The position numbers were made by a program, and so were the translations under genes. From an uncultured Gammaproteobacteria bacterium (GTDB lineage: Bacteria > Patescibacteriota > Microgenomatia > Levybacterales > GWA1-39-11), in contig CAZHDZ010000002.1 of assembly GCA_964531275.1 (NCBI GenBank), positions 58,180 to 122,179 of the forward strand: 64,000 nucleotides of DNA, read 5' to 3'. Below, piece after piece: positions 38,434-54,221 of the stretch (position 1 is the first letter of the stretch; each line of letters begins with the position of its first letter). A model generated the notes under the pieces. That model was not told where the DNA came from. It saw nothing but the letters and a program-made list of their open reading frames with translations, and did no database searches.

Positions 38434-38457
38434 CAAAAAAAGCCTCCTGGGGAGGCT
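38434..38457 (-). terminator. Intrinsic terminator after rplT (GCCUCC-CCAG-GAGGC + U7).
   Basis: Minus-strand reading AAAGCCTCCCCAGGAGGCTTTTTTTG. It lies between the rplT stop and the NUDIX gene start. Confidence 0.6.
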
Positions 38458-38482: not shown

Positions 38483-38836
38483 TTACTTTGTACCAAATGC
38501 CTCTTTCACGATCATTCTAAAAGCTTCACGATTTTCACTAACAAGACCTGAAAGAATCTTTCTATCGATTTCTATATTTTTTAGCTTGAGTGCATTGATG
38601 AATCGGCTGTATGAATAACCCTCTTCTTTAACCGCTTCACCGATTCTTACAATCCAAAGTCTTCGAAAATCTCTCTTCTTTCTCTTTCGACCATGGTATG
38701 CGTACTGATCTGCATGCAAAACAGCCTCGGTTGCTGTTTTGATCAGTCTTGATCGTGTGCCTCGGTAACCCTTGGCTAGATCAAATATTTTATTGTGTTT
38801 TCTGTGGGTAACTACCCCTCTTTTTACTCTACTCAT
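38483..38836 (-). CDS. rplT: 50S ribosomal protein L20.
   Basis: MSRVKRGVVTHRKHNKIFDLAKGYRG...RLWIVRI is a canonical L20 sequence. Confidence 0.95.
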   Translation of the reverse strand: MSRVKRGVVTHRKHNKIFDLAKGYRGTRSRLIKTATEAVLHADQYAYHGRKRKKRDFRRLWIVRIGEAVKEEGYSYSRFINALKLKNIEIDRKILSGLVSENREAFRMIVKEAFGTK

Positions 38837-38910
38837 AGTTTATTCGTGAGCAAGCTTCGCTTACTCTACTCATATGTTTTTACCCCTGCTTTAGCTGGGG
38901 CAAGCTTCGC

Positions 38911-42130: not shown

Positions 42131-42300
42131 ATTGTGGACCCAAGAGGACTCGTTCTGCAACGCAGTGCGAAGCACAATCTGACCTAAAGTATCACGCTCA
42201 ACATGTGATTATTGTGGACGATACAGAATTCGAATCTGTGACCTTTACAATGTCAATGTAACGCTCTACGATTTGCAAAGCAAATTGAGTGCTCCAGCTG
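42131..42300 (-). repeat. Two degenerate partial copies of the tRNA-Val 3' region directly downstream of the intact gene.
   Basis: 42212-42300 retains the D-stem 3' side, an identical anticodon arm (TTACATTGACATTGTAA), and a T-arm and acceptor 3' side (ACAGATTCGAATTCTGT, ATCGTCCA) with compensatory changes, but has no matching acceptor 5' strand. 42135-42152 is an exact 18-nt copy of the T-arm/acceptor 3' end (CGAGTCCTCTTGGGTCCA). All three copies are followed by CAAxA. Confidence 0.6.
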
Positions 42301-42309
42301 AGCTTTTTG

Positions 42310-42384
42310 TGGACCCAAGAGGACTCGAACCTCTGACCTTTACAATGTCAATGTAACGCTCTAACCAAACTGAGCTATGAGTCC
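42310..42384 (-). tRNA. tRNA-Val (anticodon GAC).
   Basis: Minus-strand GGACTCATAGCTCAGTTTGGTTAGAGCGTTACATTGACATTGTAAAGGTCAGAGGTTCGAGTCCTCTTGGGTCCA folds as a cloverleaf with anticodon loop TTGACAT. CCA is not encoded. Confidence 0.8.
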
Positions 42385-42492: not shown

Positions 42493-43569
42493 TTAGGCTA
42501 GTAAAAATTTCTCACAGAAAACTGCTGCTTCTACCATTTCGGAGATTTTGGCATATTCTCTTTTTGTGTGAGCATTGTAATCTCCGGTTCCGACAACAAT
42601 AGCTTCAATTCCATTAGTATGAAATATATTTACGTCAGTTCCTCCCCCACTGTCTGAGATATTTGGGGTAATACCCATTTCGACAAAAGAGCTTTTCGCT
42701 CTTTCAATAACAGTATGAGTTTCTGAAAAGCGATATGGGTCAAATTCTCTTACAATCTCCAGATCTACTTTGGCTTCTGGGTATTCCTTCATGACACTAT
42801 CAAATACATCCTGGAAATGTCTTGCATGAAGTGCTAGTTTCTCTCGATCTCTACTTCTAATTTCGGCCTTGAAATGTGCTGATTCCGGTACCGCATTTCT
42901 CGCGCTCCCCCCTTCAATAAGCCCAACATTTGCGGTTGTTTCATGGTCAATTCGCCCTAGCTGTAACTGGCTAATAATTTTGGATGCAATTTGAATTGCT
43001 GAAATGCCCTTTTCAGGTTCTGCACCTGCATGCGCGCTTCTACCTGTAATGGTTGCGTCCACTCTGTTGTATCCTGGAGCTGAGATTGTGACGTTCGTTA
43101 CTCTTTCTTCACCGTCAAATGTAAGGCCTTGTCTCGAAGTAACCATGGAATAGTCAAGATTCTTTGCTCCTAGAAGTCCAATTTCTTCAGATCGGGTAAA
43201 TACTACCTCAAGTGAGACTTCTTTTTTTTCTTCTTTTAGAGACTCGATGGCTTCAAGGATTGCAGCCACTCCTGCTTTTGGGTCTGCACCCAATACTGTT
43301 GTGCCGTCAGTATTAATAATATCTCCATTTATTACTGGTTTTATGTTATTGCCCGGCTCAACAGTGTCGATGTGAGCATTCAGCATGAAGGGTGCACCCT
43401 TTCCTTGAAACTTTGCCACAATATTGCCAAAGGAATCGGTGTCGGTTTTGCCTCCCAGGCTTTCTAGTTTTTCAATTAAAAATTTAGCCATTGCATCCTC
43501 ATTGCCTGAAGTGCTGTCTATTGAGACCATTTCCAAAAAATTCTTTATCAGTCTTTCTTTCGTTATCAT
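42493..43569 (-). CDS. M20-family metallopeptidase (ArgE/DapE/PepT-like).
   Basis: NAHIDTVEPG, SEEIGLLGAKN, and a dimerisation-domain insertion. 358 aa. Confidence 0.7.
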   Translation of the reverse strand: MITKERLIKNFLEMVSIDSTSGNEDAMAKFLIEKLESLGGKTDTDSFGNIVAKFQGKGAPFMLNAHIDTVEPGNNIKPVINGDIINTDGTTVLGADPKAGVAAILEAIESLKEEKKEVSLEVVFTRSEEIGLLGAKNLDYSMVTSRQGLTFDGEERVTNVTISAPGYNRVDATITGRSAHAGAEPEKGISAIQIASKIISQLQLGRIDHETTANVGLIEGGSARNAVPESAHFKAEIRSRDREKLALHARHFQDVFDSVMKEYPEAKVDLEIVREFDPYRFSETHTVIERAKSSFVEMGITPNISDSGGGTDVNIFHTNGIEAIVVGTGDYNAHTKREYAKISEMVEAAVFCEKFLLA

Positions 43570-43577
43570 AAAATGTA

Positions 43578-44588
43578 TTATAGCGAATTTTGAATTATTG
43601 TACTAAGCTCGCCTTCAAAATGTCCTCCTCCAATATCTTTTCGTATAAGGTTAGTTGCGTGGAGTATTTCCGTAAAAGCAGCGCCATGTGGCACGTGAGA
43701 GTGTGCAAGCATACCGTCGGTTAATAAAACGCCGTCTACTAACAGAGGTTCACTATTGTGCGGATAGTAGTGCGGTGTTCTTAAGTTTTTTGACATAAGA
43801 GTAATAGCATTGCTTTCGGCAAGTGTAATAAGCGCGCCATGCCCTCTAAGATTGTTCCTTTCTTGTTCCATAAGGTTTATAAAGGTGTCTTCGCTTTGAG
43901 GAAGAACAAAAAGCGGATTGTTTTTGGGTTTAAAAAGTCCTGCTTCCGTTTCTCCGTATGTAAGACCGTATGCATCATAGTGTGCAAGTAGATAGGACGC
44001 TGCTCCATTTCGCGGATCTCCTGATCTGGCATGCTTACTGGACATATTAAGAAGGGTATTCATGCCTTCTGGGCTTATGCCTTGAGAAGCTTTATCTCCT
44101 TCACTTAGAATACGAAGCGCAGCATCAATACTGTCGTACTCGATTTCAGGTTTTGGAACGGATGGATGAAATCGGTCAAGATATCCATGCGCTACTCTTC
44201 CCAAGAATTGTGCGTTAGTCATGCCCTCTTGCACAGCTACTTCAAGCTCCTCACGAGACCTAGGGTCAATATTTGCAGCTGTATTTATGTGAATTGGGGC
44301 CATGGTTACCCATGACTCAGGTGGTTGATATCCTTTTTCTCTTATACCCTCAATAAGTTGGGCTGTTTCTGCTATGCCAGCTAGCCATCTCATTGGTACC
44401 TGACCATTTACAGAGTGGAGAGTATATATTGTTCTTTCTCCAAGACTATTTGCTTTGAGTGCCTCCCGCCATTTCTGGGCACTATCCCAGTCATACGCCA
44501 TAGTTGGCATATTTGCGTCATTAGGTTTTTCACCCAAGTAGTACTGTTCTAGGTCTAATCTGTATGTTGATAAGTGTTCCATAACCAC
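43578..44588 (-). CDS. Hypothetical protein (336 aa), co-operonic with the M20 peptidase.
   Basis: The ORF starts with GTG at 44588 right after a U7 tract; an in-frame ATG follows 2 codons later. No recognisable motifs. Confidence 0.6.
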   Translation of the reverse strand: MVMEHLSTYRLDLEQYYLGEKPNDANMPTMAYDWDSAQKWREALKANSLGERTIYTLHSVNGQVPMRWLAGIAETAQLIEGIREKGYQPPESWVTMAPIHINTAANIDPRSREELEVAVQEGMTNAQFLGRVAHGYLDRFHPSVPKPEIEYDSIDAALRILSEGDKASQGISPEGMNTLLNMSSKHARSGDPRNGAASYLLAHYDAYGLTYGETEAGLFKPKNNPLFVLPQSEDTFINLMEQERNNLRGHGALITLAESNAITLMSKNLRTPHYYPHNSEPLLVDGVLLTDGMLAHSHVPHGAAFTEILHATNLIRKDIGGGHFEGELSTIIQNSL

Positions 44589-44740
44589 AAAAAAACCCCC
44601 GCTTAGGTCCCGAAATCTGGGACGCGGAGGTTAAAGTTGACCAGCTCAAATCAACCCCCGCTAGGCGAAGGTGTAAGTAAAGTAGAATTGAGCTGTTTTT
44701 AACATTAGATCCATTATACAAAAGCGGATTGATAAATCAA
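44589..44740 (-). promoter_or_regulatory. Promoter (TTGATT-16-TATAAT) plus a ~130-nt structured leader with a terminator/antiterminator-like arrangement directly 5' of the 336-aa gene.
   Basis: Minus strand: -35 at 44735-44740, -10 TATAAT at 44713-44718. The leader holds GCGGGGGUU (decoy), then CCUCCGC-[GUCCC AGAUUUC GGGAC]-CUAA-GCGGGGG-U7, then GUG. Decoy and 5' arm are complementary. Confidence 0.5.
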
Positions 44741-45852
44741 CCTACTTTTTGGAAAATTAGTTCTTTGGATTTTTGGAGTATCTTTACTTTGTCCATATTA
44801 AGTTCTACGCCAAGACCATTTTTGCTAACAGGTACTCTTTGGCCTGCGACGTAAGGAGACATTCCGGTTGTATAATTCTGAACTTTAAGATCTGCGTCTA
44901 AATCCGAAAGAATTATATTAGGAGTAGAAACAGCAAAGTGAACGCCTGCCGCAATGCCAATTGGTCCTTCTAGCATGCATCCCACCATTACTTTCATATC
45001 TGCCTTCTCAGCCATTTCCGCAATGACTTTGGAGGGCCAGATCCCTCCTGCCTTTTGAAGCTTAATATTAATTCCATGCGCAGCCTTTTTCTTTGTTACC
45101 ACTTTTGCATCTTCTATGGTTGCGGCAGATTCATCCGCAAAAACCAGCATGCCCTCAACATTGTCTTTAACAAATTTCAACTTTGTAAGTTGACCTTTGG
45201 GACATGGTTCCTCAACCAAAATTACATTCCCAAGAATCTTATTAATACTATTTAAATCTTTAACCGCTTTTTTAGGGTCGGTAAATCCTTGATTAGCGTC
45301 AACTATATACTTCATTCTTGCTGGTGAGGCATTTTTTATTGCCCGTACTCTTTCAATATCCCCTTCTCCTTTAAGCTTTATTTTAAGAATCTTTAATTTC
45401 GGAAACTCATCAAAAATTTGACGAGTCGCTTGTGCTGTTTGGCTGAGTGTGTCATGAAGAAGAACCGTAACAGAATTGTCCACTAGGGAAGCCTTTGGTG
45501 CATACAGGGCATAGACCGGAATTTTGCGAATCTTTGCAATTAGATCATGATATGCAAAGTCGATTGCTGCTCGTAATGTTAAAGAGGTAATTTTGGTATC
45601 CAAAAAAGCATGAAGTTGTGCCAGTGAATCTGTCTCTGGATTAAGTGGTATCGTTCTTACTTTTGATACATCCTCAACTACATCATCCTGGGAGTCTCCA
45701 GTTATTGGTTTAAATGGGGCTGCTTCGCCTACTCCAGTAAACCCTTTGTGTGAAAGAGTAATAACGACTGTCTCTCGATAGTAGAAAGTGTGGAATGATA
45801 CGGAGAAAGGCTCCGGTAGTTTTGTGTTAAGAATTGATGCGCTTAGTTTCAT
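44737..45852 (-). CDS. Mandelate racemase / muconate-lactonizing enzyme family (enolase superfamily); likely dipeptide epimerase or OSBS-like.
   Basis: KxK (KIKLKG), metal ligands D (VDANQGF), E (LVEEP) and D (FADES), and the second catalytic K (KLQKAG). 371 aa. Confidence 0.75.
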   Translation of the reverse strand: MKLSASILNTKLPEPFSVSFHTFYYRETVVITLSHKGFTGVGEAAPFKPITGDSQDDVVEDVSKVRTIPLNPETDSLAQLHAFLDTKITSLTLRAAIDFAYHDLIAKIRKIPVYALYAPKASLVDNSVTVLLHDTLSQTAQATRQIFDEFPKLKILKIKLKGEGDIERVRAIKNASPARMKYIVDANQGFTDPKKAVKDLNSINKILGNVILVEEPCPKGQLTKLKFVKDNVEGMLVFADESAATIEDAKVVTKKKAAHGINIKLQKAGGIWPSKVIAEMAEKADMKVMVGCMLEGPIGIAAGVHFAVSTPNIILSDLDADLKVQNYTTGMSPYVAGQRVPVSKNGLGVELNMDKVKILQKSKELIFQKVG

Positions 45853-45855
45853 GCG

Positions 45856-47436
45856 TTATTGTAATTGCAATTCTACTAAATTCGGTCGAGCATTGTCGTA
45901 AATAAATTGTGGCGTTACTTCTGCAAATGTCTCATCTTTTCTTCCAGAAAAAACCGTAGCATATATGCCCGGAAGGCCAATAAGACTTGCCTCCTTAACT
46001 GTAGTATCCCGAATTTGATCAAGTCTTTTCTGATTAATTGCTCCTCCTGCAATTATCTCGATTGCTCCTGCAGGTCTGACCGCTCTATCTGCGTTATTTC
46101 TGCTGACAATAGGAATCATGCCGGCGCTATAATTCTCAGTGCGTTGGGCTCTGACCATTTGCGCCCATTTACTATTTCCTGCTTCATCTAGTGCCTGAGA
46201 AAGGCCATCCTTCATCCTTGTTAAATAGTCTGTTTGCATGAATCCCCCATAGCAAACAAGGCCTCTAGCTAAGGCAAGTTCTGTAAATGTTACAAAGAGA
46301 TTTGGATAAATATCCTCGTTGTTAAGAGCTTGTGCAATTGCCTCGGGCTCGAATGGTAGAACAGAATCTTTTCCTGCCAGAACGAGCCCTCCACTCCTTT
46401 CTTCTAGGTGAAGACTCTCTACTTCCAGATTTGTTCTCTTGCCCCAGAAAAATTCAGTACCTTGTCTTGCATTTTGGCTATTCCAACAGCCGGGTACGCC
46501 ATCAAGACTACGATACGTTGCATCTCTTAACTCAGGATTAAAGAGGGTATTAAAGATAAGAGAATCCGGATTTTCCAGATCCTGTTTGAGTAGATCTGTT
46601 GCTACTTTTTCGATTTGCAAAAAGGACATCTCAGGCATATGTTCTGCAACATCCGGTGTAAAGAGACGCTTCCACAAATCACTATTAATAAGACTTGCTT
46701 GGTCAGAGAAGCTGTCTTGTCCTAGTACGTCATATCTCATATAAACATCATTAAGAATCTCTCTAATTACTGTCATCTCCTGCTTGCTTATTACGCCTTG
46801 TCCGAAAAGTCCCGTGAGTTTTCCATCAGTTTGTTGAATCATTTCGCTCGTCATTGGTGGCAATGCAGCAACGGGTGCGTCTCCGTATTTTCGTACGGGG
46901 AGAATATTAATTTTTACCGGGACACTTTTCATTTCACCAGTGCCAGTGTCTTGGTGTCTTTCTCGTGCAAGTTGAATTCCTAAAGGATATGTTAAATTGT
47001 TTGCAGGGAGGGCACCTCCTGCAAGTGCCACAAGAACCCCCTCAGGTTTTTTCCCAAATTGTGCCAGTACGCTTGATTGTGCTGTTATGGGGAAAAAATC
47101 ACCACCCATGTGATAAGGAGAATTAACTACGGGAGTCTCTGCTAACTGACCTGCTGCTTTAATAGCCATTTCCGTCCCGTACAGACGGCGCGTCTCATCA
47201 ACTACTGCCTCAACTGCTTCTTCTAGAGGGTGAATAGTTGGAGTACTATCACCTTCACTAAATGTTGAGGCATATTCGCCTAGCCCTTTGCCTCCTTGTT
47301 CAGACAGAACACTTGTAAGCACGGGTCTTTCTGCCTTTACGGCGTCGTACATAGCCTCTATTTTTGCTTCTTGCGGTGTAAATCTTAAATTATCCATAGT
47401 AGCGCAAATTATATGCAACATCTGCCCTTCGCGCAA
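45856..47436 (-). CDS. Hypothetical protein (526 aa).
   Basis: Long ORF tightly packed, with a 3-nt gap to the MR/MLE gene. No motif I can name. Confidence 0.6.
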   Translation of the reverse strand: MREGQMLHIICATMDNLRFTPQEAKIEAMYDAVKAERPVLTSVLSEQGGKGLGEYASTFSEGDSTPTIHPLEEAVEAVVDETRRLYGTEMAIKAAGQLAETPVVNSPYHMGGDFFPITAQSSVLAQFGKKPEGVLVALAGGALPANNLTYPLGIQLARERHQDTGTGEMKSVPVKINILPVRKYGDAPVAALPPMTSEMIQQTDGKLTGLFGQGVISKQEMTVIREILNDVYMRYDVLGQDSFSDQASLINSDLWKRLFTPDVAEHMPEMSFLQIEKVATDLLKQDLENPDSLIFNTLFNPELRDATYRSLDGVPGCWNSQNARQGTEFFWGKRTNLEVESLHLEERSGGLVLAGKDSVLPFEPEAIAQALNNEDIYPNLFVTFTELALARGLVCYGGFMQTDYLTRMKDGLSQALDEAGNSKWAQMVRAQRTENYSAGMIPIVSRNNADRAVRPAGAIEIIAGGAINQKRLDQIRDTTVKEASLIGLPGIYATVFSGRKDETFAEVTPQFIYDNARPNLVELQLQ

Positions 47437-49077
47437 TTAATTTAGTCTTGCATTGTGAAGTGCAGTTATGTCAAAAAGTACTCCTCTTAAGTTTTCCCTT
47501 TGTAGTGCTGATTCCTGGCCAGTTGCTTGCTGAAGTACGACTTCTGTCTGGGCTAACATTTCTATGGCATCTTTAAGGTCAGTTCCCTGCGGAACATCAT
47601 ACTCGGTAGCGTAATACACGGGTTTATGTCCGATGTCTGTTATGAGAGATATTCCAATTTGTTCCTGAGGATCTATTAATCTTTGTTCTTCCCAGGCCTC
47701 AACATCATCAGCTACTTGCTGTAAATTTATTCTTTCATCTTGATCTTCACTTTTTGCTATCTTATTTTTTACAAAGTCAACAAGGCCATCTGAATTAGCT
47801 TCACGTCTCAGGAAGTCTCTCACTGCACAAAAATGCCTTTCAGACCTTCCACCAATAGTTATATTTACATCAACTGCTTCGCCCTCGCTCCCAAAATACC
47901 CATCAGAAGGAATTGCTAATTGATCTCGAAAAACCAGGGGGTGTATTGCTGCATATTCGGCTGCATTTTCTGCGCCATTGTCACCACCGTGATTATTGCC
48001 TAATTCCTGAAGCGTAGCGATGGTGTCCATAACTGCAGGATCAGTGCTGCTTTTCAAAAGATGGGCTAGATATTCACGAGCAACTCTAGTTCCCAATTGG
48101 TGTTCATCCCAAGGAACATCTTCCCTGTATTCAACTGCACTACTAATGTCAGGATAGGTACCGTCGATGAATCCTTTCATTGCTTCCATATTCTGTGCAG
48201 TTCTTCCCGGAATTTTTTCAGGATCCATTCGTTGGCTTACAGTATTTATTGCAATTGCAGCTTGATGTGCGAAAAAGAATTCTGCTGTTGGAAGTTGTTG
48301 TAGGATTCCTGCTTTCCTTCTAACCTCTTCCTGTTCATCTCCTGTAAGAACTGCTTCAACACCTATACTGTCAATTTCCTGAGCAATTGAAGCTCTTTGA
48401 CCTTGGGAAAGGAAATCAATATTCAAATACTCTTTCACAGTATCAATACCCTTTTTGTTTGCCGCTTGCCTCATTTTTGTGGATTCTCTTTTGGAATAAA
48501 TTTGTGATAGTCCGTCAAGAATTCGCATAGCTGGAATGCCATACGCCGGAAGTCTTGCGGGTGTAAAGTCATCATCGGAACCACCAAACCCAGTTCGTAT
48601 TGCAACCCTGGTATCAGGGTTTTTAGCCATCATAATGGCAGCTTCTACAACATGAAGAGATTGATTCTGTTGAACCATTGATATGTAGTTGTCTGATCCA
48701 ACTATAACTTTTGTAATTGAAGGAGCAAGTTCTGATATATTGGTAAAAGTATTTCGTGCTTCATCGCTAACAAATTCACCAGTATCAGTAAATAATTCTG
48801 CGCACTGTCTTCTAACAACTTCTGCGCTTTGTGCTATGAATGATCGGCGATATTTCTTCTCAAGTGGCGAAAATGGTGCATTTCCATCAACAAAAACTTT
48901 GATTCGATTGTCTGCATTATCTTCGAAAGGCTTAATAAGTTTTACTTGAAGCGCTTCAAGTTGCTTGTTGGCAACGCCAAAGCTTGCCTCTGCAGGCTGA
49001 ATGCTTGAAAATTCAAATTGTTGTGTTGGTATTTCAGCTGTCATATTTTTCCATTGGTTTGTCTTCTCAAACCACAA
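47437..49077 (-). CDS. Hypothetical protein (546 aa).
   Basis: The long ORF abuts the 526-aa gene (stop and start adjacent). The TTG start at 49077 sits 5 nt after a GGGAGG inside the upstream hairpin; an alternative ATG lies at 49044. Confidence 0.6.
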   Translation of the reverse strand: MWFEKTNQWKNMTAEIPTQQFEFSSIQPAEASFGVANKQLEALQVKLIKPFEDNADNRIKVFVDGNAPFSPLEKKYRRSFIAQSAEVVRRQCAELFTDTGEFVSDEARNTFTNISELAPSITKVIVGSDNYISMVQQNQSLHVVEAAIMMAKNPDTRVAIRTGFGGSDDDFTPARLPAYGIPAMRILDGLSQIYSKRESTKMRQAANKKGIDTVKEYLNIDFLSQGQRASIAQEIDSIGVEAVLTGDEQEEVRRKAGILQQLPTAEFFFAHQAAIAINTVSQRMDPEKIPGRTAQNMEAMKGFIDGTYPDISSAVEYREDVPWDEHQLGTRVAREYLAHLLKSSTDPAVMDTIATLQELGNNHGGDNGAENAAEYAAIHPLVFRDQLAIPSDGYFGSEGEAVDVNITIGGRSERHFCAVRDFLRREANSDGLVDFVKNKIAKSEDQDERINLQQVADDVEAWEEQRLIDPQEQIGISLITDIGHKPVYYATEYDVPQGTDLKDAIEMLAQTEVVLQQATGQESALQRENLRGVLFDITALHNARLN

Positions 49078-49212
49078 AAAAACCTCCCTTTTGGGGAGGT
49101 CGTTAATACACGAAAAACCTCCCCTAGCGCTGGCTAAGAAGGAGGTCTAGTAAGATTACTGAATTTCGTGTCATGTTATGTACCATTATATCAATTCATT
49201 TGTCTTTGACAA
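49074..49212 (-). promoter_or_regulatory. Promoter (TTGTCA-16-TATAAT) plus a leader with two tandem CCUCC/GGAGG hairpins and a U7 tract 5' of the 546-aa gene.
   Basis: Minus strand: -35 at 49207-49212, -10 at 49185-49190. The leader reads GACCUCCUUCUUAGCCAGCGCUAGGGGAGGUUUUU ... GACCUCCCCAAAAGGGAGGUUUUUUUGUGG. The first hairpin's 5' arm (GACCUCCUU) mimics the 16S 3' end. Confidence 0.5.
49076..49099 (-). terminator. Intrinsic-terminator-like hairpin CCUCCC-CAAA-AGGGAGG + U7. It could terminate the 49221 gene and also sequesters the SD of the 546-aa gene.
   Basis: Minus strand CCTCCCCAAAAGGGAGGTTTTTTTGTGG. Confidence 0.55.
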
Positions 49213-49642: not shown

Positions 49643-49700
49643 AAAAAAACCTCCCAAAGTGGGAGGTCAAATTATTATTTTCTCCCACGAAAAGCTACGC
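49643..49700 (-). promoter_or_regulatory. CCUCCCA-CUU-UGGGAGG + U7 hairpin with an upstream decoy (CGUGGGAG), followed by a 14-codon uORF (GUG start) overlapping the start of the acidic-protein gene.
   Basis: Minus strand UUUUCGUGGGAGAAAAUAAUAAUUUGACCUCCCACUUUGGGAGGUUUUUUUGUGCCUUUUAACAAACUAUGGAAAUGG. The decoy GUGGGAG is exactly complementary to the 5' arm CUCCCAC. Confidence 0.45.
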
Positions 49701-49755
49701 CTTGATAAGGTGAAGTCTTCGTGTGTAAGAAAATTGCATGTCCATACGTAATATA

Positions 49756-50151
49756 TTACACTTTTGAGGCTGCAATGTCAATTTCTGCGGTTGCTGCTAT
49801 TTCAACCAAGGCGTTTAGCGGAAGTGACACAACGCCAACTGTGTATCGAGCTGGTTTCGAATCGCCGAGATATTTTGCATACACTTCGTTAAATTTTGCG
49901 TAATTGCTCAAGTCTGATAAAAAACATTGTGTTTGGACAACATCAGAAAGAGAAGATCCCGCCTCCTCAAGAACCGCTTTAAGGTTTGAAATTACTTGCT
50001 CTGTCTGACCTTCAATATCAGCTGCCTCTATCGTGCCACTAATCGGATTTATTCCAATTTGCCCCGAGCAAAAGACAAATCCACCGCTTACGATTGCTTG
50101 CGAATAGGGCCCTACAACTGTCGGTGCCTTAGAGGTAAAGACTGTTTTCAT
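49756..50151 (-). CDS. ridA: RidA (YjgF/TdcF) family reactive-enamine/imine deaminase.
   Basis: 131 aa. The full-length sequence is characteristic of the YjgF fold. It sits immediately downstream of threonine dehydratase (1-nt junction). Confidence 0.85.
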   Translation of the reverse strand: MKTVFTSKAPTVVGPYSQAIVSGGFVFCSGQIGINPISGTIEAADIEGQTEQVISNLKAVLEEAGSSLSDVVQTQCFLSDLSNYAKFNEVYAKYLGDSKPARYTVGVVSLPLNALVEIAATAEIDIAASKV

Positions 50152-51399
50152 TTATATGATGTAATTATACAAAAGATCGCTGTGCTTAATCGGCGTATAG
50201 GAAATACCTATGCTGTCTAGCCTTTTGATTAAAGGCTCGTAGTCATTTTTTGAAGCAAGCTCTATTCCGACCAGTGCAGGGCCGGTCTCTCGGGAAGTTT
50301 TTTTGACATATTCAAATCTGACTATGTCATCCGTAGGTCCAAGAGCTTTGTCTACAAATGCTCGCAGTTGTCCTGGCTTTTGGGCAAATTTAAGAAGAAA
50401 ATAGTGCTTTCTTCCTTGATGTATCAAGCTTCTTTCCATAATCTCCGGGTATCTTAGGATGTCATTATTTCCTCCGCTTAGTACGCAAACAACAGTTTTG
50501 CCTTTTAACTTTTTTTTGAGGCTATATAGGGCTGCGATTGAGAGTGCTCCCGCAGGCTCAGCTACGATCCCCTCATTTTGATAAAGGTCAATCATGGTTG
50601 TACATATTTGCCCCTCAGAAATAAGTACTACTTCTTTCACAAGCCTTTTAATTATTGAAAAGGATATATCCCCGGGCTTTTTAACAGCAGCACCATCTAC
50701 AAATGTATCTATGTGATCAAGCTCTACTACCTCACCCTTTTTAAGGGACTCATACATGCTGGGGGCACCTTCCGGTTCTGCGCCAATGAATACAGTATGA
50801 GGTGAGACATGGGAAAAATATGAACTAACTCCAGACAAGAATCCCCCTCCACCAATTGGAGCAATGAAATAATCGATACTGCTTCCCAATTCTTCATAAA
50901 TTTCTTTTCCTACAGTTCCTTGGCCAGCAATTACATCAATGTCATTGAAAGGATGAACAAAAATAGCGTTTTTCTTTTCGCACACCTCTATGGCTTTTTT
51001 GTAAGCTTCGTCATACGTATTGCCAAACAACTCAATAGTTATATGTGAGTTGCCAAACTCTCTGACTCTTTTTATTTTTTGTAACGGGGTCGTTGTGGGC
51101 ATAAAAATTGTTGTTGAAATTCCTAGTTCTTTTGCAGCAAATGCAACTCCTTGTGCATGATTGCCTGCGCTTGCTGCGACTACTCCTTGCTGTCTCTCCT
51201 TTGGGGTTAGCATGGACATTTTGTTGTAGGCACCTCGTATTTTGTATGATCTAACGATCTGCTGGTCTTCTCTCTTAATATAAACTTGAGCCTCAAATTC
51301 TTGAGATAGACGCTCTGAAAGCATAAGCTCGGTGCGTTTTACGGTACCGCTTAGTCTTTTGGCTGCTTCGTTAATATGATTAAGAGTTATTACGTTCAT
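50152..51399 (-). CDS. ilvA: Threonine dehydratase (PLP-dependent; catalytic domain plus C-terminal regulatory ACT-like domain).
   Basis: PLP-lysine motif VRSYKIRGAYNKM, ASAGNHAQGVA, and a G-rich PLP loop GGGGF. 415 aa. Confidence 0.85.
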   Translation of the reverse strand: MNVITLNHINEAAKRLSGTVKRTELMLSERLSQEFEAQVYIKREDQQIVRSYKIRGAYNKMSMLTPKERQQGVVAASAGNHAQGVAFAAKELGISTTIFMPTTTPLQKIKRVREFGNSHITIELFGNTYDEAYKKAIEVCEKKNAIFVHPFNDIDVIAGQGTVGKEIYEELGSSIDYFIAPIGGGGFLSGVSSYFSHVSPHTVFIGAEPEGAPSMYESLKKGEVVELDHIDTFVDGAAVKKPGDISFSIIKRLVKEVVLISEGQICTTMIDLYQNEGIVAEPAGALSIAALYSLKKKLKGKTVVCVLSGGNNDILRYPEIMERSLIHQGRKHYFLLKFAQKPGQLRAFVDKALGPTDDIVRFEYVKKTSRETGPALVGIELASKNDYEPLIKRLDSIGISYTPIKHSDLLYNYII

Positions 51400-51586
51400 T
51401 CCATAAGCAAAGCTTGTGTCTTTTCAAGCCAATCCCTGTCTTTCAAAGCCATAAAAAAACCTCCCATTTTTGGGAGGTCGTGCGTCTTAAAAGATCAACA
51501 CCCTCCCTAGGAAGGAATAATAATGTCGATAATTTGAAGACTTCGGTGCATAAAAGTAATGTACTACTGCTAGGGAAAAAAGTCAA
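51400..51586 (-). promoter_or_regulatory. ilvA leader: candidate promoter (TTGACT-17-TACATT), three-segment GGGAGGG / CCUCCCA / GGGAGG-U7 switch, and an 18-codon uORF whose stop overlaps the ilvA AUG (AUGA).
   Basis: Minus strand CCUUCCUAGGGAGGGUG...CGACCUCCCAAAAAUGGGAGGUUUUUUUAUGGCUUUGAAAGAC...CUUAUGGAAUGAACG. The hairpin's 3' arm GGGAGG is the SD of the uORF at 7-nt spacing. Confidence 0.45.
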
Positions 51587-53333: not shown

Positions 53334-54221
53334 TTAAAGTGTGCTGAGGAAGGTGACGGTCTTTTGCTGACGGATAATTGATGCTACTAAATAAGGGTTT
53401 TTCATAATTTCTTCTCTTTCGGTAGGATTTTCAATAGAAGCCAGTGCCTTTTCAATATCTTCTTTATCTACAGTTATTTTCTCTTCATCTGCTATTTTTC
53501 TTAATAAAAATTCTAATTTGAGATCGTTTTCTGCCTTTAGCTTGTATTCATCTCTTAATTTTTCAGCATCAATATTTTTAGATGAAAGATATTGTTCTAG
53601 GGTTAATCCGAGCTTTTTGAGTTCATCTAGCATTTGTGAGAGAAGGCGTGATGTCTCGCTTTCAACAAGCACATCAGGGATAGTGATTTTTGCGGCTTTT
53701 AGTGCTGCCTCCAATATTCCATCAAGGTCTACCTTGCTTTCCTCTTTACCAGGTACAAGGATTTTTGATTTTGCTGTTACTTTTGCTATTTCTTCTTTGT
53801 ATTTGCCCAGTTCAACCATTGGTTCTTCGCAGGTTTGAGCTGTAAATTGAATATCAGTACCTTCAGTAAAAATTTCAATATGAATTTGAGGGCTAATTAT
53901 TGGAGTTAGTTTGTGTTTTGTAATAGCCTCATTGTAGGCAACTCCTACGACTTTCTTAAGAACCTCTTCTTTTACAAGTTCTGGATTGAGTCTTGCCTTT
54001 GCGACATTTTTTGGAGCCTGTCCTGGTCTAAATCCTGCGATCTTAACGCTTTTAATCAGTTCATTTTCAATTGCATCCTGTGCTTTTTGAGCTTGAGTCC
54101 ATGGCACAACAATAGTTAGTTCAAGAGTGCCGTCATCCTTTCGGATCAACCCCTCTTTTCTAGGAGAGTGATCGTGCGCCTGATTTTCGCTTTGTGTAGC
54201 AGGTTTGTCTGATTTAGCCAT
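53334..54221 (-). CDS. tig: Trigger factor, short form: ribosome-binding N-domain plus C-domain, no PPIase domain.
   Basis: Signature GFRPGQAPKNV in the N-domain. It is 295 aa, whereas canonical trigger factor is ~430 aa. Confidence 0.7.
   Translation of the reverse strand: MAKSDKPATQSENQAHDHSPRKEGLIRKDDGTLELTIVVPWTQAQKAQDAIENELIKSVKIAGFRPGQAPKNVAKARLNPELVKEEVLKKVVGVAYNEAITKHKLTPIISPQIHIEIFTEGTDIQFTAQTCEEPMVELGKYKEEIAKVTAKSKILVPGKEESKVDLDGILEAALKAAKITIPDVLVESETSRLLSQMLDELKKLGLTLEQYLSSKNIDAEKLRDEYKLKAENDLKLEFLLRKIADEEKITVDKEDIEKALASIENPTEREEIMKNPYLVASIIRQQKTVTFLSTL

Follow-up and report, generated by a model that had tools for sequence, protein, structure and literature searches.

A probable leader-peptide attenuator with phenylalanine codons precedes a rare gene pair in a likely Patescibacteria bacterium

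The 64,000-nt stretch of bacterial DNA analysed here (the window) carries a five-gene cluster that codes for two proteins of 546 and 526 residues belonging to no known family, an enzyme of the MR/MLE type, a 336-residue protein and an M20 peptidase. The gap of ~150 bases between the MR/MLE gene and the gene of the 336-residue protein houses a mini-open reading frame (ORF) with Phe codons, alternative hairpins and an intrinsic terminator. We consider it quite likely that these parts make up a transcription attenuator of the ribosome-mediated (leader-peptide) type, by which the charging of tRNA-Phe is sensed, and Tyr and Thr codons probably contribute to sensing in the version found in the window. 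The mechanism itself is known; what is new is the likely host, a member of the Candidate Phyla Radiation (CPR), together with the apparently leaderless leader ORF and the genes under control. A first-pass annotation had described an antiterminator/terminator switch at this site. Its geometry is present, energetically balanced and conserved, but the sensor, a leader ORF rich in Phe, Tyr and Thr codons, had been missed.

All coordinates of the leader refer to the minus strand of the window (Table 1). The TTGATT-16-TATAAT promoter that had been read across the MR/MLE stop codon is indeed there, and it has counterparts in the homologous loci: all eight Phe leaders display TTGxxx-16/17-TATAAT or TATACT, with scores of 10-11 out of 12. 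From the position of the -10 box, which ends 7 nt before the leader ATG, we infer that transcription starts at about 44706/44705, which would give a leader of ~118 nt up to the GTG of the downstream gene, instead of the 130 nt first announced. In this leader, the frame at 44705-44661 is the sole ATG-initiated ORF of at least eight codons; a second in-frame ATG is found at 44714-44712, within TATAATG. A Shine-Dalgarno sequence is missing from the leader ORF, as from all 11 leaders examined, and in each of the 11 the start codon lies 6-10 nt past the -10 box. Because this distance is constant and ribosome-binding sites are missing, initiation at the leader ORF is probably leaderless.

The leader peptide of the window is encoded with three Phe, two Tyr and three Thr codons, and its TAG stop is positioned in the loop of hairpin 1. 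Region 1, the 5' arm of that hairpin, is built from the last three sense codons (ACC UUC GCC), and the first base of region 2 is the G of the stop codon. Since a Phe/Tyr/Thr-rich ORF thus ends in the hairpin 1 loop, the arrangement is that of a classical attenuator with hairpins 1:2, 2:3 and 3:4. The terminator reads as had been reported, CCUCCGC-[GUCCC AGAUUUC GGGAC]-CUAA-GCGGGGG-U7-GUG, with CCUCCGC falling within 44634-44624. A hairpin occupies the same place as the inner one in the homologous leader L004, where it is formed by a different sequence. Region 2 corresponds to a decayed copy of the 3' half of the terminator, as seen from a direct repeat of 16 nt with 88% identity between 44647-44662 and 44588-44603.

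Table 1. Features of the Phe leader, its target genes and the sister cassettes (all located features on the minus strand of the window), and leader peptides of the homologous loci.
Feature	Position	Remarks
-35 hexamer TTGATT	44735-44740	Overlaps the TGA stop (44739-44737) of the MR/MLE gene, whose product has 371 residues
-10 hexamer TATAAT	44713-44718	16-nt spacer to the -35 hexamer; promoter score 10/12
Leader ORF, 14 codons	44661-44705	MLKTAQFYFTYTFA, then TAG stop (44663-44661)
Outer helix, 5' arm CAGCUCAA	44688-44695	Within the leader ORF; pairs with 44649-44642 (inverted repeat I1)
Proposed regulatory codons F7 Y8 F9 T10 Y11 (UUC UAC UUU ACU UAC)	44673-44687	
Region 1 ACCUUCGC	44665-44672	5' arm of hairpin 1; spans codons T12, F13, A14
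Region 2 GCGGGGGUUGA	44651-44661	Partner of region 1 (anti-antiterminator) or region 3 (antiterminator)
Outer helix, 3' arm UUGAGCUG	44642-44649	
Region 3 UUAACCUCCGC	44624-44634	5' arm of terminator; antiterminator partner of region 2
Inner hairpin GUCCC-AGAUUUC-GGGAC	44607-44623	Inside the terminator loop
CUAA	44603-44606	Between inner hairpin and region 4
Region 4 GCGGGGG	44596-44602	3' arm of terminator; candidate Shine-Dalgarno of the 336-residue protein gene
U7 tract of intrinsic terminator	44589-44595	
Candidate start codons of the 336-residue protein gene	44580-44588	GTG 44588-44586; in-frame ATG 44582-44580
Target gene 1, protein of 334/336 residues	43578-44582	Very rare family
Target gene 2, M20 peptidase, PepT-like	42493-43569	TIGR01883, 290.7 bits (cut-off 274)
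Sister attenuator before ilvA	51453-51586	Promoter TTGACT-17-TACATT; ORF 51551-51507, MHRSLQIIDIIIPS, then stop; terminator 51479-51453
Sister attenuator heading the cluster	49076-49212	TTGTCA-16-TATAAT; ORF 49174-49124, MTRNSVILLDLLLSQR, then stop; hairpin 1; terminator 49101-49076
Fourth cassette, between ridA and an acidic 134-residue ORF	49643-49781	TTGACA-17-TAATAT; MDMQFSYTRRLHLIKA, then stop; terminator; no obvious codon run
Leader peptide, window		MLKTAQFYFTYTFA
Leader peptide, L004		MQSIQNFRFYFTFA
Leader peptide, L001, L009, L010 and L012		MNVTRRKEFFFFFFLANRGASV
Leader peptide, L003		MTTFIKNLFFFFFFIPGKREI
Leader peptide, L007		MTTTISNLFFFFIPGKREI
Leader peptide, L014		MKRISTLVFVFFFNPIQAGSVT

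The three mutually exclusive hairpins are nearly isoenergetic. Hairpin 1:2, lengthened into the leader ORF by the outer helix, reaches -19.8 kcal/mol (z -4.4); the antiterminator 2:3, a helix of 11 bp between 44661-44651 and 44634-44624, -19.2 kcal/mol (z -5.1); and the terminator 3:4 (stem 44634-44596) -19.6 kcal/mol (z -3.5). Each was equalled by at most one of 200 shuffled sequences, the leader as a whole folds with a z-score of -3.3 relative to shuffles, and similar hairpin energies are found in seven leaders. The check by folding that had been suggested for the two alternative conformations thus showed them to be energetically balanced. As for the upstream copy of the terminator 3' arm, which had been proposed as a free decoy for the 5' arm, the repeat and its pairing over 11 bp are real, but region 2 is not available by default: it would be paired with ACCUUCGC (44672-44665) as long as no ribosome is stalled at the Phe/Tyr codons.

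We modelled the effect of such a ribosome in silico, on a nascent transcript that ends before region 4 and in which the ribosome footprint is forced to be single-stranded. With no ribosome, 1:2 forms and region 3 remains free. When the A-site is placed at any of codons 1-11, 2:3 forms and the pairing probability of region 3 is ~1.0. At codon 12, the probability that region 3 pairs upstream is 0.71, and from codon 13 to the stop, where region 2 is covered, it drops to 0.12, leaving region 3 free for the terminator. This pattern was reproduced in the homologous leaders L004, L001, L007 and L014 and in the Ile leader described below, and the Leu leader showed 2:3 in its minimum-free-energy folds at codons 8-13 in the same run.

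These results suggest the following scenario. Transcription would begin ~7 nt past TATAAT, so that the mRNA opens at or next to the leader AUG and is translated by leaderless initiation. When charged tRNA-Phe is ample, the ribosome would proceed as far as the UAG within the hairpin 1 loop and mask region 2; 3:4 would then pair, and the hairpin with its U7 tract would terminate transcription one base before the gene of the 336-residue protein. A leader that is not translated should also lead to termination, with 1:2 and 3:4 both forming. When charged tRNA-Phe is scarce, stalling at codons 7-11 (F Y F T Y) would cover region 1 together with the outer helix and leave region 2 accessible; the latter could then pair with region 3 over 11 bp, abolish the terminator and allow read-through into the genes of the 336-residue protein and the M20 peptidase. 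For transcripts coming from the upstream promoter, the leader ORF might be reached by re-initiation after the MR/MLE stop codon. Independent control of the last two genes, as proposed initially, is plausible.

The case for Phe rests on the homologous loci. The family of the 336-residue protein is very rare: among 5.8 billion proteins, four clusters were found at first and nine once a profile was used, and a set of 1.84 billion proteins yielded 44 representatives; a scan of metagenome contigs for additional relatives found none. In every locus that covers the upstream region, an MR/MLE gene is followed by a gap of 110-160 nt and then by the homologue of the 336-residue protein, and the M20 peptidase gene comes next wherever the contig reaches that far. 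The gene pairs form five lineages, with protein identities of 31-50%. The promoter, the start codon 6-10 nt past the -10 box, a Phe-rich mini-ORF and the 1-2-3-4 geometry are common to all of them, as is the succession of hairpin 1, a spacer and a GC-rich terminator whose U6-U9 tract abuts the gene start. Phe-rich stretches in the homologous leader peptides include FRFYFTF, FFFFFF, FFFF and FVFFF. The ORFs of the window and of L004 have equal lengths and share F7, F9, T12, F13 and A14, with a synonymous change from TTC to TTT at F7. The leaders L003 and L007 differ by an in-frame indel of 6 nt that amounts to two Phe codons, and the ATG of the L003 leader overlaps the MR/MLE stop. Conservation between lineages is limited to the promoter, the U tract, the Phe codons and the arms of regions 1-4. 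Within one lineage, denoted D, leaders are 93-98% identical whereas the downstream genes are 76-89% identical at the DNA level, a difference that we read as purifying selection on the leader. The 2:3 helices have extensions that lie outside the terminator and are specific to lineages, namely UUGA:UUAA in the window, AUCUGA:UCAGAC in L003 and L007 and AGUGU:ACAU in L014, which argues that the antiterminator itself is under selection. The locus thus presents an ORF with clustered codons, an intrinsic terminator, mutually exclusive 1:2 and 2:3 hairpins, a geometry that responds to ribosome position in silico and conservation of the codons, as leader-peptide attenuators do.

An alternative proposal would be that a constitutive, leaky terminator inside the operon, or a tandem of terminators, merely makes the last two genes less expressed than the first three, with a mini-ORF present by chance. 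The leader does resemble two tandem terminators, region 2 and its tail looking like a decayed 3' half; another terminator of the window (38455-38435) directly precedes the nudix-pheST genes without any leader ORF; and terminator-like sites are only modestly enriched in the window, with 17 found for 10.4 expected. However, a strong, conserved promoter lies upstream and not downstream of the terminator in all lineages, and five lineages whose leaders cannot otherwise be aligned all retain the Phe-rich ORF together with its frame and its placement with respect to regions 1 and 2. The lineage-specific extensions of 2:3 and the stronger conservation of the leader relative to the coding gene are also difficult to reconcile with a passive element, and we regard this proposal as improbable.

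The nature of the T-rich runs calls for another comparison. It could be imagined that U runs slow RNA polymerase when UTP is low and couple it to the leading ribosome, as in attenuation of the pyrBI type, and runs such as T8CT8 in leaders of the L001 type and T5CT5CT6 in those of the L003 type would suit such a device. Nevertheless, in the T-rich leaders each C that interrupts the runs occupies the third position of a codon in the ATG frame, giving TTC and hence Phe. Moreover, long U runs are missing from the leaders of the window, L004 and L014, which keep Phe codons among Tyr, Thr, Arg or Val codons, and no regulated gene is tied to pyrimidine metabolism. Sensing of UTP therefore appears exceedingly improbable.

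A third proposal concerns the output of the switch. In a purely translational version, 3:4 would mask the downstream gene's ribosome-binding site (region 4), a ribosome stalled at the Phe codons would open it, and the U tract would not terminate transcription. Region 4 is G-rich (GCGGGGG in the window and GCGGAGG in L004) and lies 7 nt from the GTG and 13 nt from the ATG; a start codon directly follows the U tract in L001, in the upstream leader of L009 and in the ilvA leader; and short leaderless poly-Cys ORFs of mycobacteria operate in this manner (bioRxiv 10.1101/834739). Arguing against it, a GC-rich stem followed by U6-U9 is kept in every lineage, whereas a spacer need not consist of U only, and U7-GTG also follows other terminators of the window (49075, 49642) where the GTG does not share the frame of the downstream ORF. 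A purely translational switch is thus quite improbable. The two modes are compatible, and we expect both to operate: in the read-through form of our attenuator, region 4 would be single-stranded and usable as a ribosome-binding site, so that control may combine transcription and translation, with the terminator 3' arm possibly serving twice. The first-pass annotation had already suggested that the terminator sequesters a G-rich ribosome-binding site; region 4 does lie at Shine-Dalgarno distance, its role as such being putative.

The same annotation had taken U7 as the spacer between this Shine-Dalgarno sequence and a GTG start codon. The spacing of 7 nt is correct, but GTG as the start is doubtful: the database record starts at ATG 44582 (P0001, 334 residues), and the N-termini of homologues align with it as MEHLS/MEQLS. 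The in-frame GTG 44588, which yields the 336-residue version, is a less favoured alternative start. Most minus-strand terminators that we read (38435, 44589, 49074 and 49641, as well as those of L004 and L014) have U7 followed by GTG or GTA, in any frame, the exception being the terminator of the ilvA leader, where ATG follows the U tract at 51459-51453. Instead of marking a start codon, U7-GTG/GTA may reflect a sequence context of terminators that is peculiar to the lineage.

Finally, alternative structures alone are silent on what selects between them, and the regulators of CPR bacteria are poorly known. An RNA-binding protein, uncharged tRNA acting as on a T-box, or a small molecule binding to a riboswitch could in principle flip 2:3 and 3:4, the ORF being irrelevant. 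The search of Rfam recommended by the first-pass annotation, however, gave no match to the leader, T-box and riboswitch models included, at the gathering threshold or at E-values up to 10. Over the whole window, only tRNAs were recovered at the gathering threshold, and between 43500 and 46000 the matches with E up to 10 were at chance level (rdlD, anti-hemB). No aptamer-like core or specifier-like element that would be conserved between lineages is visible either, which makes a trans-acting ligand very improbable. We thus rejected riboswitches, T-boxes and known leader families as identities of the Phe leader.

Several observations weigh against the attenuator that we propose. The enrichment in Phe of the window peptide is not significant when taken alone. 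The leader ORF has no Shine-Dalgarno sequence, and its translation hinges on the predicted transcription start. The regulated genes are not those of Phe biosynthesis. In Streptomyces coelicolor, mutating the candidate codons of elements that lie upstream of ilvB and resemble a leader ORF did not reveal the behaviour of classical attenuators (PMC1262725). In equilibrium folding of the full leader, the terminator is kept with a ribosome modelled at F9-Y11, and some homologues keep it wherever the ribosome is placed; more generally, such folds are mixed and often favour the terminator or a nested 1:4 plus 2:3. The persistence of the terminator in these folds implies that the switch would need kinetic, co-transcriptional control. 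Textbook attenuators are likewise kinetic. Regions 2 and 4 also have nearly the same core, GCGG[G/A]G in all lineages, which makes pairing of 2:3 in part automatic and accounts for the lack of strict compensatory covariation. Automatic alignment of the leaders with MAFFT was not good enough for counting covariation by column. Between the window and L004, only G.U-mediated changes that preserve pairs were seen. Lastly, L002 has one additional T per T-run relative to L001, which shifts the frame, and its peptide is still F-rich (FFFLFF).

The leader under study is not isolated, as three further cassettes are found within 7 kb upstream of it, making four modules in all. When the window was scanned under strict criteria for the whole succession of a -10 box, an initiation codon at a distance of 5-11 nt, an ORF of 10-30 codons and a terminator, three sites were returned, compared with one in total across 20 shuffled windows. 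The leader ORF of ilvA-ridA has Ile codons (IIDIII), the specificity expected for threonine dehydratase, and that in front of the first gene of the cluster, coding for the 546-residue protein, has Leu codons (LLDLLL). The Ile and Leu cassettes serve as an internal positive control for the leader-peptide module. As the Leu cassette heads its first gene, the cluster carries two attenuators of different amino-acid specificity. The homologue of this first gene in L009 comes after a leader, MINNTFQIIMVLLMVRISAAGSA, which is rich in branched-chain amino acids, and a terminator (L009 4516-4686). An 18-codon ORF, MALKDRDWLEKTQALLME, is present at 51396-51452 on the minus strand, starting 7 nt past the GGGAGG arm of the terminator in the ilvA leader. 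The ORF overlaps the ATG of ilvA with its stop codon (ATGA) and may act as a device for translational coupling.

Leader-peptide attenuation of the trp/his/leu/thr/ilv class has been reviewed (PMC1183508), and an attenuator of pheST has been noted (PMC1262725). Like the leaders of Escherichia coli pheA (pheL) and pheST (pheM), ours has a short ORF with clustered Phe codons and a stop that adjoins region 2, overlapping hairpins (1:2, 2:3 and 3:4) and, immediately ahead of the first structural gene, an intrinsic terminator, and its predicted logic is the same, uncharged tRNA-Phe leading to stalling and antitermination. FRFYFTF of L004 resembles the stretch FRFFFYF of the pheM peptide. The differences are that there is no similarity in sequence or to covariance models, that the Phe leader ORF has no Shine-Dalgarno sequence and begins 6-10 nt past the -10 box, apparently at the 5' end of the mRNA, that the targets are an unannotated 336-residue protein and an M20 peptidase rather than PheRS or enzymes that make Phe, that the host is likely a Patescibacteria/CPR bacterium and that the terminator 3' arm may double as a ribosome-binding site. 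The pheST genes of the window have no Phe leader upstream, pheS being preceded by a Nudix gene and a plain terminator. The latter, a strong terminator of sequence GCCUCCCCAGGAGGC-U7 at 38435-38455 (minus strand), lies between rplT and nudix-pheS-pheT, where a promoter would not fit and a leader ORF is absent. The Rfam family Phe_leader (RF01859) gathers elements of the same kind, and its model aligns end to end (1-125) with the three neighbouring leaders, at 26.4 bits for that of ilvA and 22.4 and 19.5 bits for the two others, for a gathering score of 55. It had no match with E up to 10 in 43500-46000, which places the Phe leader under study outside the curated family.

Similarities to the poly-Cys short ORFs of mycobacteria (bioRxiv 10.1101/834739) are the leaderless sensory first cistron, which is predicted here, the runs of codons for a single amino acid and the occurrence of several loci of shared design in a genome, called a 'ribulon' in that work. 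The mycobacterial devices act on translation by sequestering a ribosome-binding site, in contrast with the canonical intrinsic U7 terminator found here; they respond to Cys and not to Phe, or to Ile and Leu as the sister elements would; and they occur in a different phylum. Our element shares the sensing of tRNA charging and a terminator/antiterminator output with T-boxes, but it matches no T-box model, its leader of ~118 nt is too short, and it has neither a specifier loop nor a T-box sequence; T-boxes bind tRNA directly, whereas sensing here would proceed via translation. T-box riboswitches are the usual amino-acid sensors of Firmicutes, and leader-peptide attenuation is textbook knowledge in Proteobacteria and has been described in Actinobacteria. 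In the literature library that we searched, no paper joins 'leader peptide' and attenuation with Patescibacteria or the Candidate Phyla Radiation.

As for the regulated genes, the 336-residue protein has no match among Pfam, NCBIfam or Protein Data Bank sequences. Its AlphaFold model is of moderate confidence (mean pLDDT 69.5, pTM 0.77). The top 50 Foldseek matches of this model in the Protein Data Bank are all catalytic domains of tyrosyl- or tryptophanyl-tRNA synthetases, and they are weak (E ~1e-3, TM 0.34-0.46). Invariant TLHxV and MSK-like motifs occur at what we take, from the secondary structure of the model, to be the sites expected for HIGH and KMSKS of class-I synthetases, which is a lead only. 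The PepT-like M20 peptidase could release amino acids. The best NCBIfam match of the MR/MLE enzyme is the model of a Thermotoga-type dipeptide epimerase, at 158 bits, far below the cut-off of 500. The dipeptide epimerase of Thermotoga maritima prefers L-Ala-D/L-Phe, -Tyr and -His (PMC5808125). The physiological logic might be that Phe starvation induces a pair of enzymes for the salvage of peptides or amino acids in a host that is probably unable to make Phe. Going further, it is a tentative and rather doubtful idea that the cluster represents a new pathway which amino-acid starvation induces, its first half under the Leu attenuator and its second under the Phe one, that the 336-residue protein is a new class-I aminoacyl-tRNA-synthetase-like enzyme, and that CPR bacteria mainly read tRNA charging via leaderless leader peptides.

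The first gene of the cluster (47437-49077, minus strand, 546 residues), whose counterpart in L009 and L010 codes for 839 residues (L009 4686-7205), appears from sequence comparisons to be a distant paralogue of the 336-residue family. An 839-residue representative, P0158, which is probably the L009/L010 first-gene product, matches the profile of this family at residues 598-811 with an E-value of 5e-7. The 546-residue protein shares the motifs AxIxINT, FxDxxxP and AAxYxxxH with the family, and its hhalign comparison is not significant.

The host is likely a Patescibacteria/CPR bacterium, as indicated by protein comparisons. The PheS protein of the window is 97% identical to a protein of a 'Candidatus Moraniibacteriota' metagenome-assembled genome (MAG) and 74% identical to one of 'Candidatus Levybacteria', and one homologue of the 336-residue protein, 34% identical to that of the window, comes from a 'Microgenomates group' MAG. 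The MAGs L007, L008 and L009, which bear the cluster, are labelled 'uncultured Gammaproteobacteria bacterium', in conflict with the CPR names found at the protein level, and one of the labels is probably wrong. If the taxonomy holds, reduced and presumably auxotrophic bacteria would monitor tRNA charging directly, by means of compact cassettes composed of a promoter, a leaderless ORF and a terminator. Such cassettes, by the specificity of their codons, provide a functional label of the downstream genes at no cost. Here, the labels tie three unannotated families, a dipeptide-epimerase-like enzyme and an M20 peptidase to the supply of Leu and Phe, which gives this gene cluster, extremely rare in public data, a hypothesis that can be put to the test. 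The case also shows that, where a terminator abuts a start codon, a mini-ORF should be looked for before a riboswitch-like 'decoy' is invoked.

Other features of the window are of separate interest. A single reading frame of 8234 codons at 77-24781 on the plus strand would code for a giant protein. In the gap between rpmI and rplT (38836-38900, minus strand), ATGAGTAGAGTAA and the adjacent GCGAAGCTTGC occur twice within ~65 nt, and the second ATGAGTAGAGTAA is the start of rplT. A partial tRNA-like match to Rfam at 42221-42285 (minus strand; 31 bits, just above the gathering score), which ARAGORN does not call, adjoins the gene of tRNA-Val (42309-42384). Lastly, a homologue of trigger factor of 295 residues is encoded at 53334-54221 on the minus strand, with the N- and C-terminal domains and apparently without the central PPIase domain.

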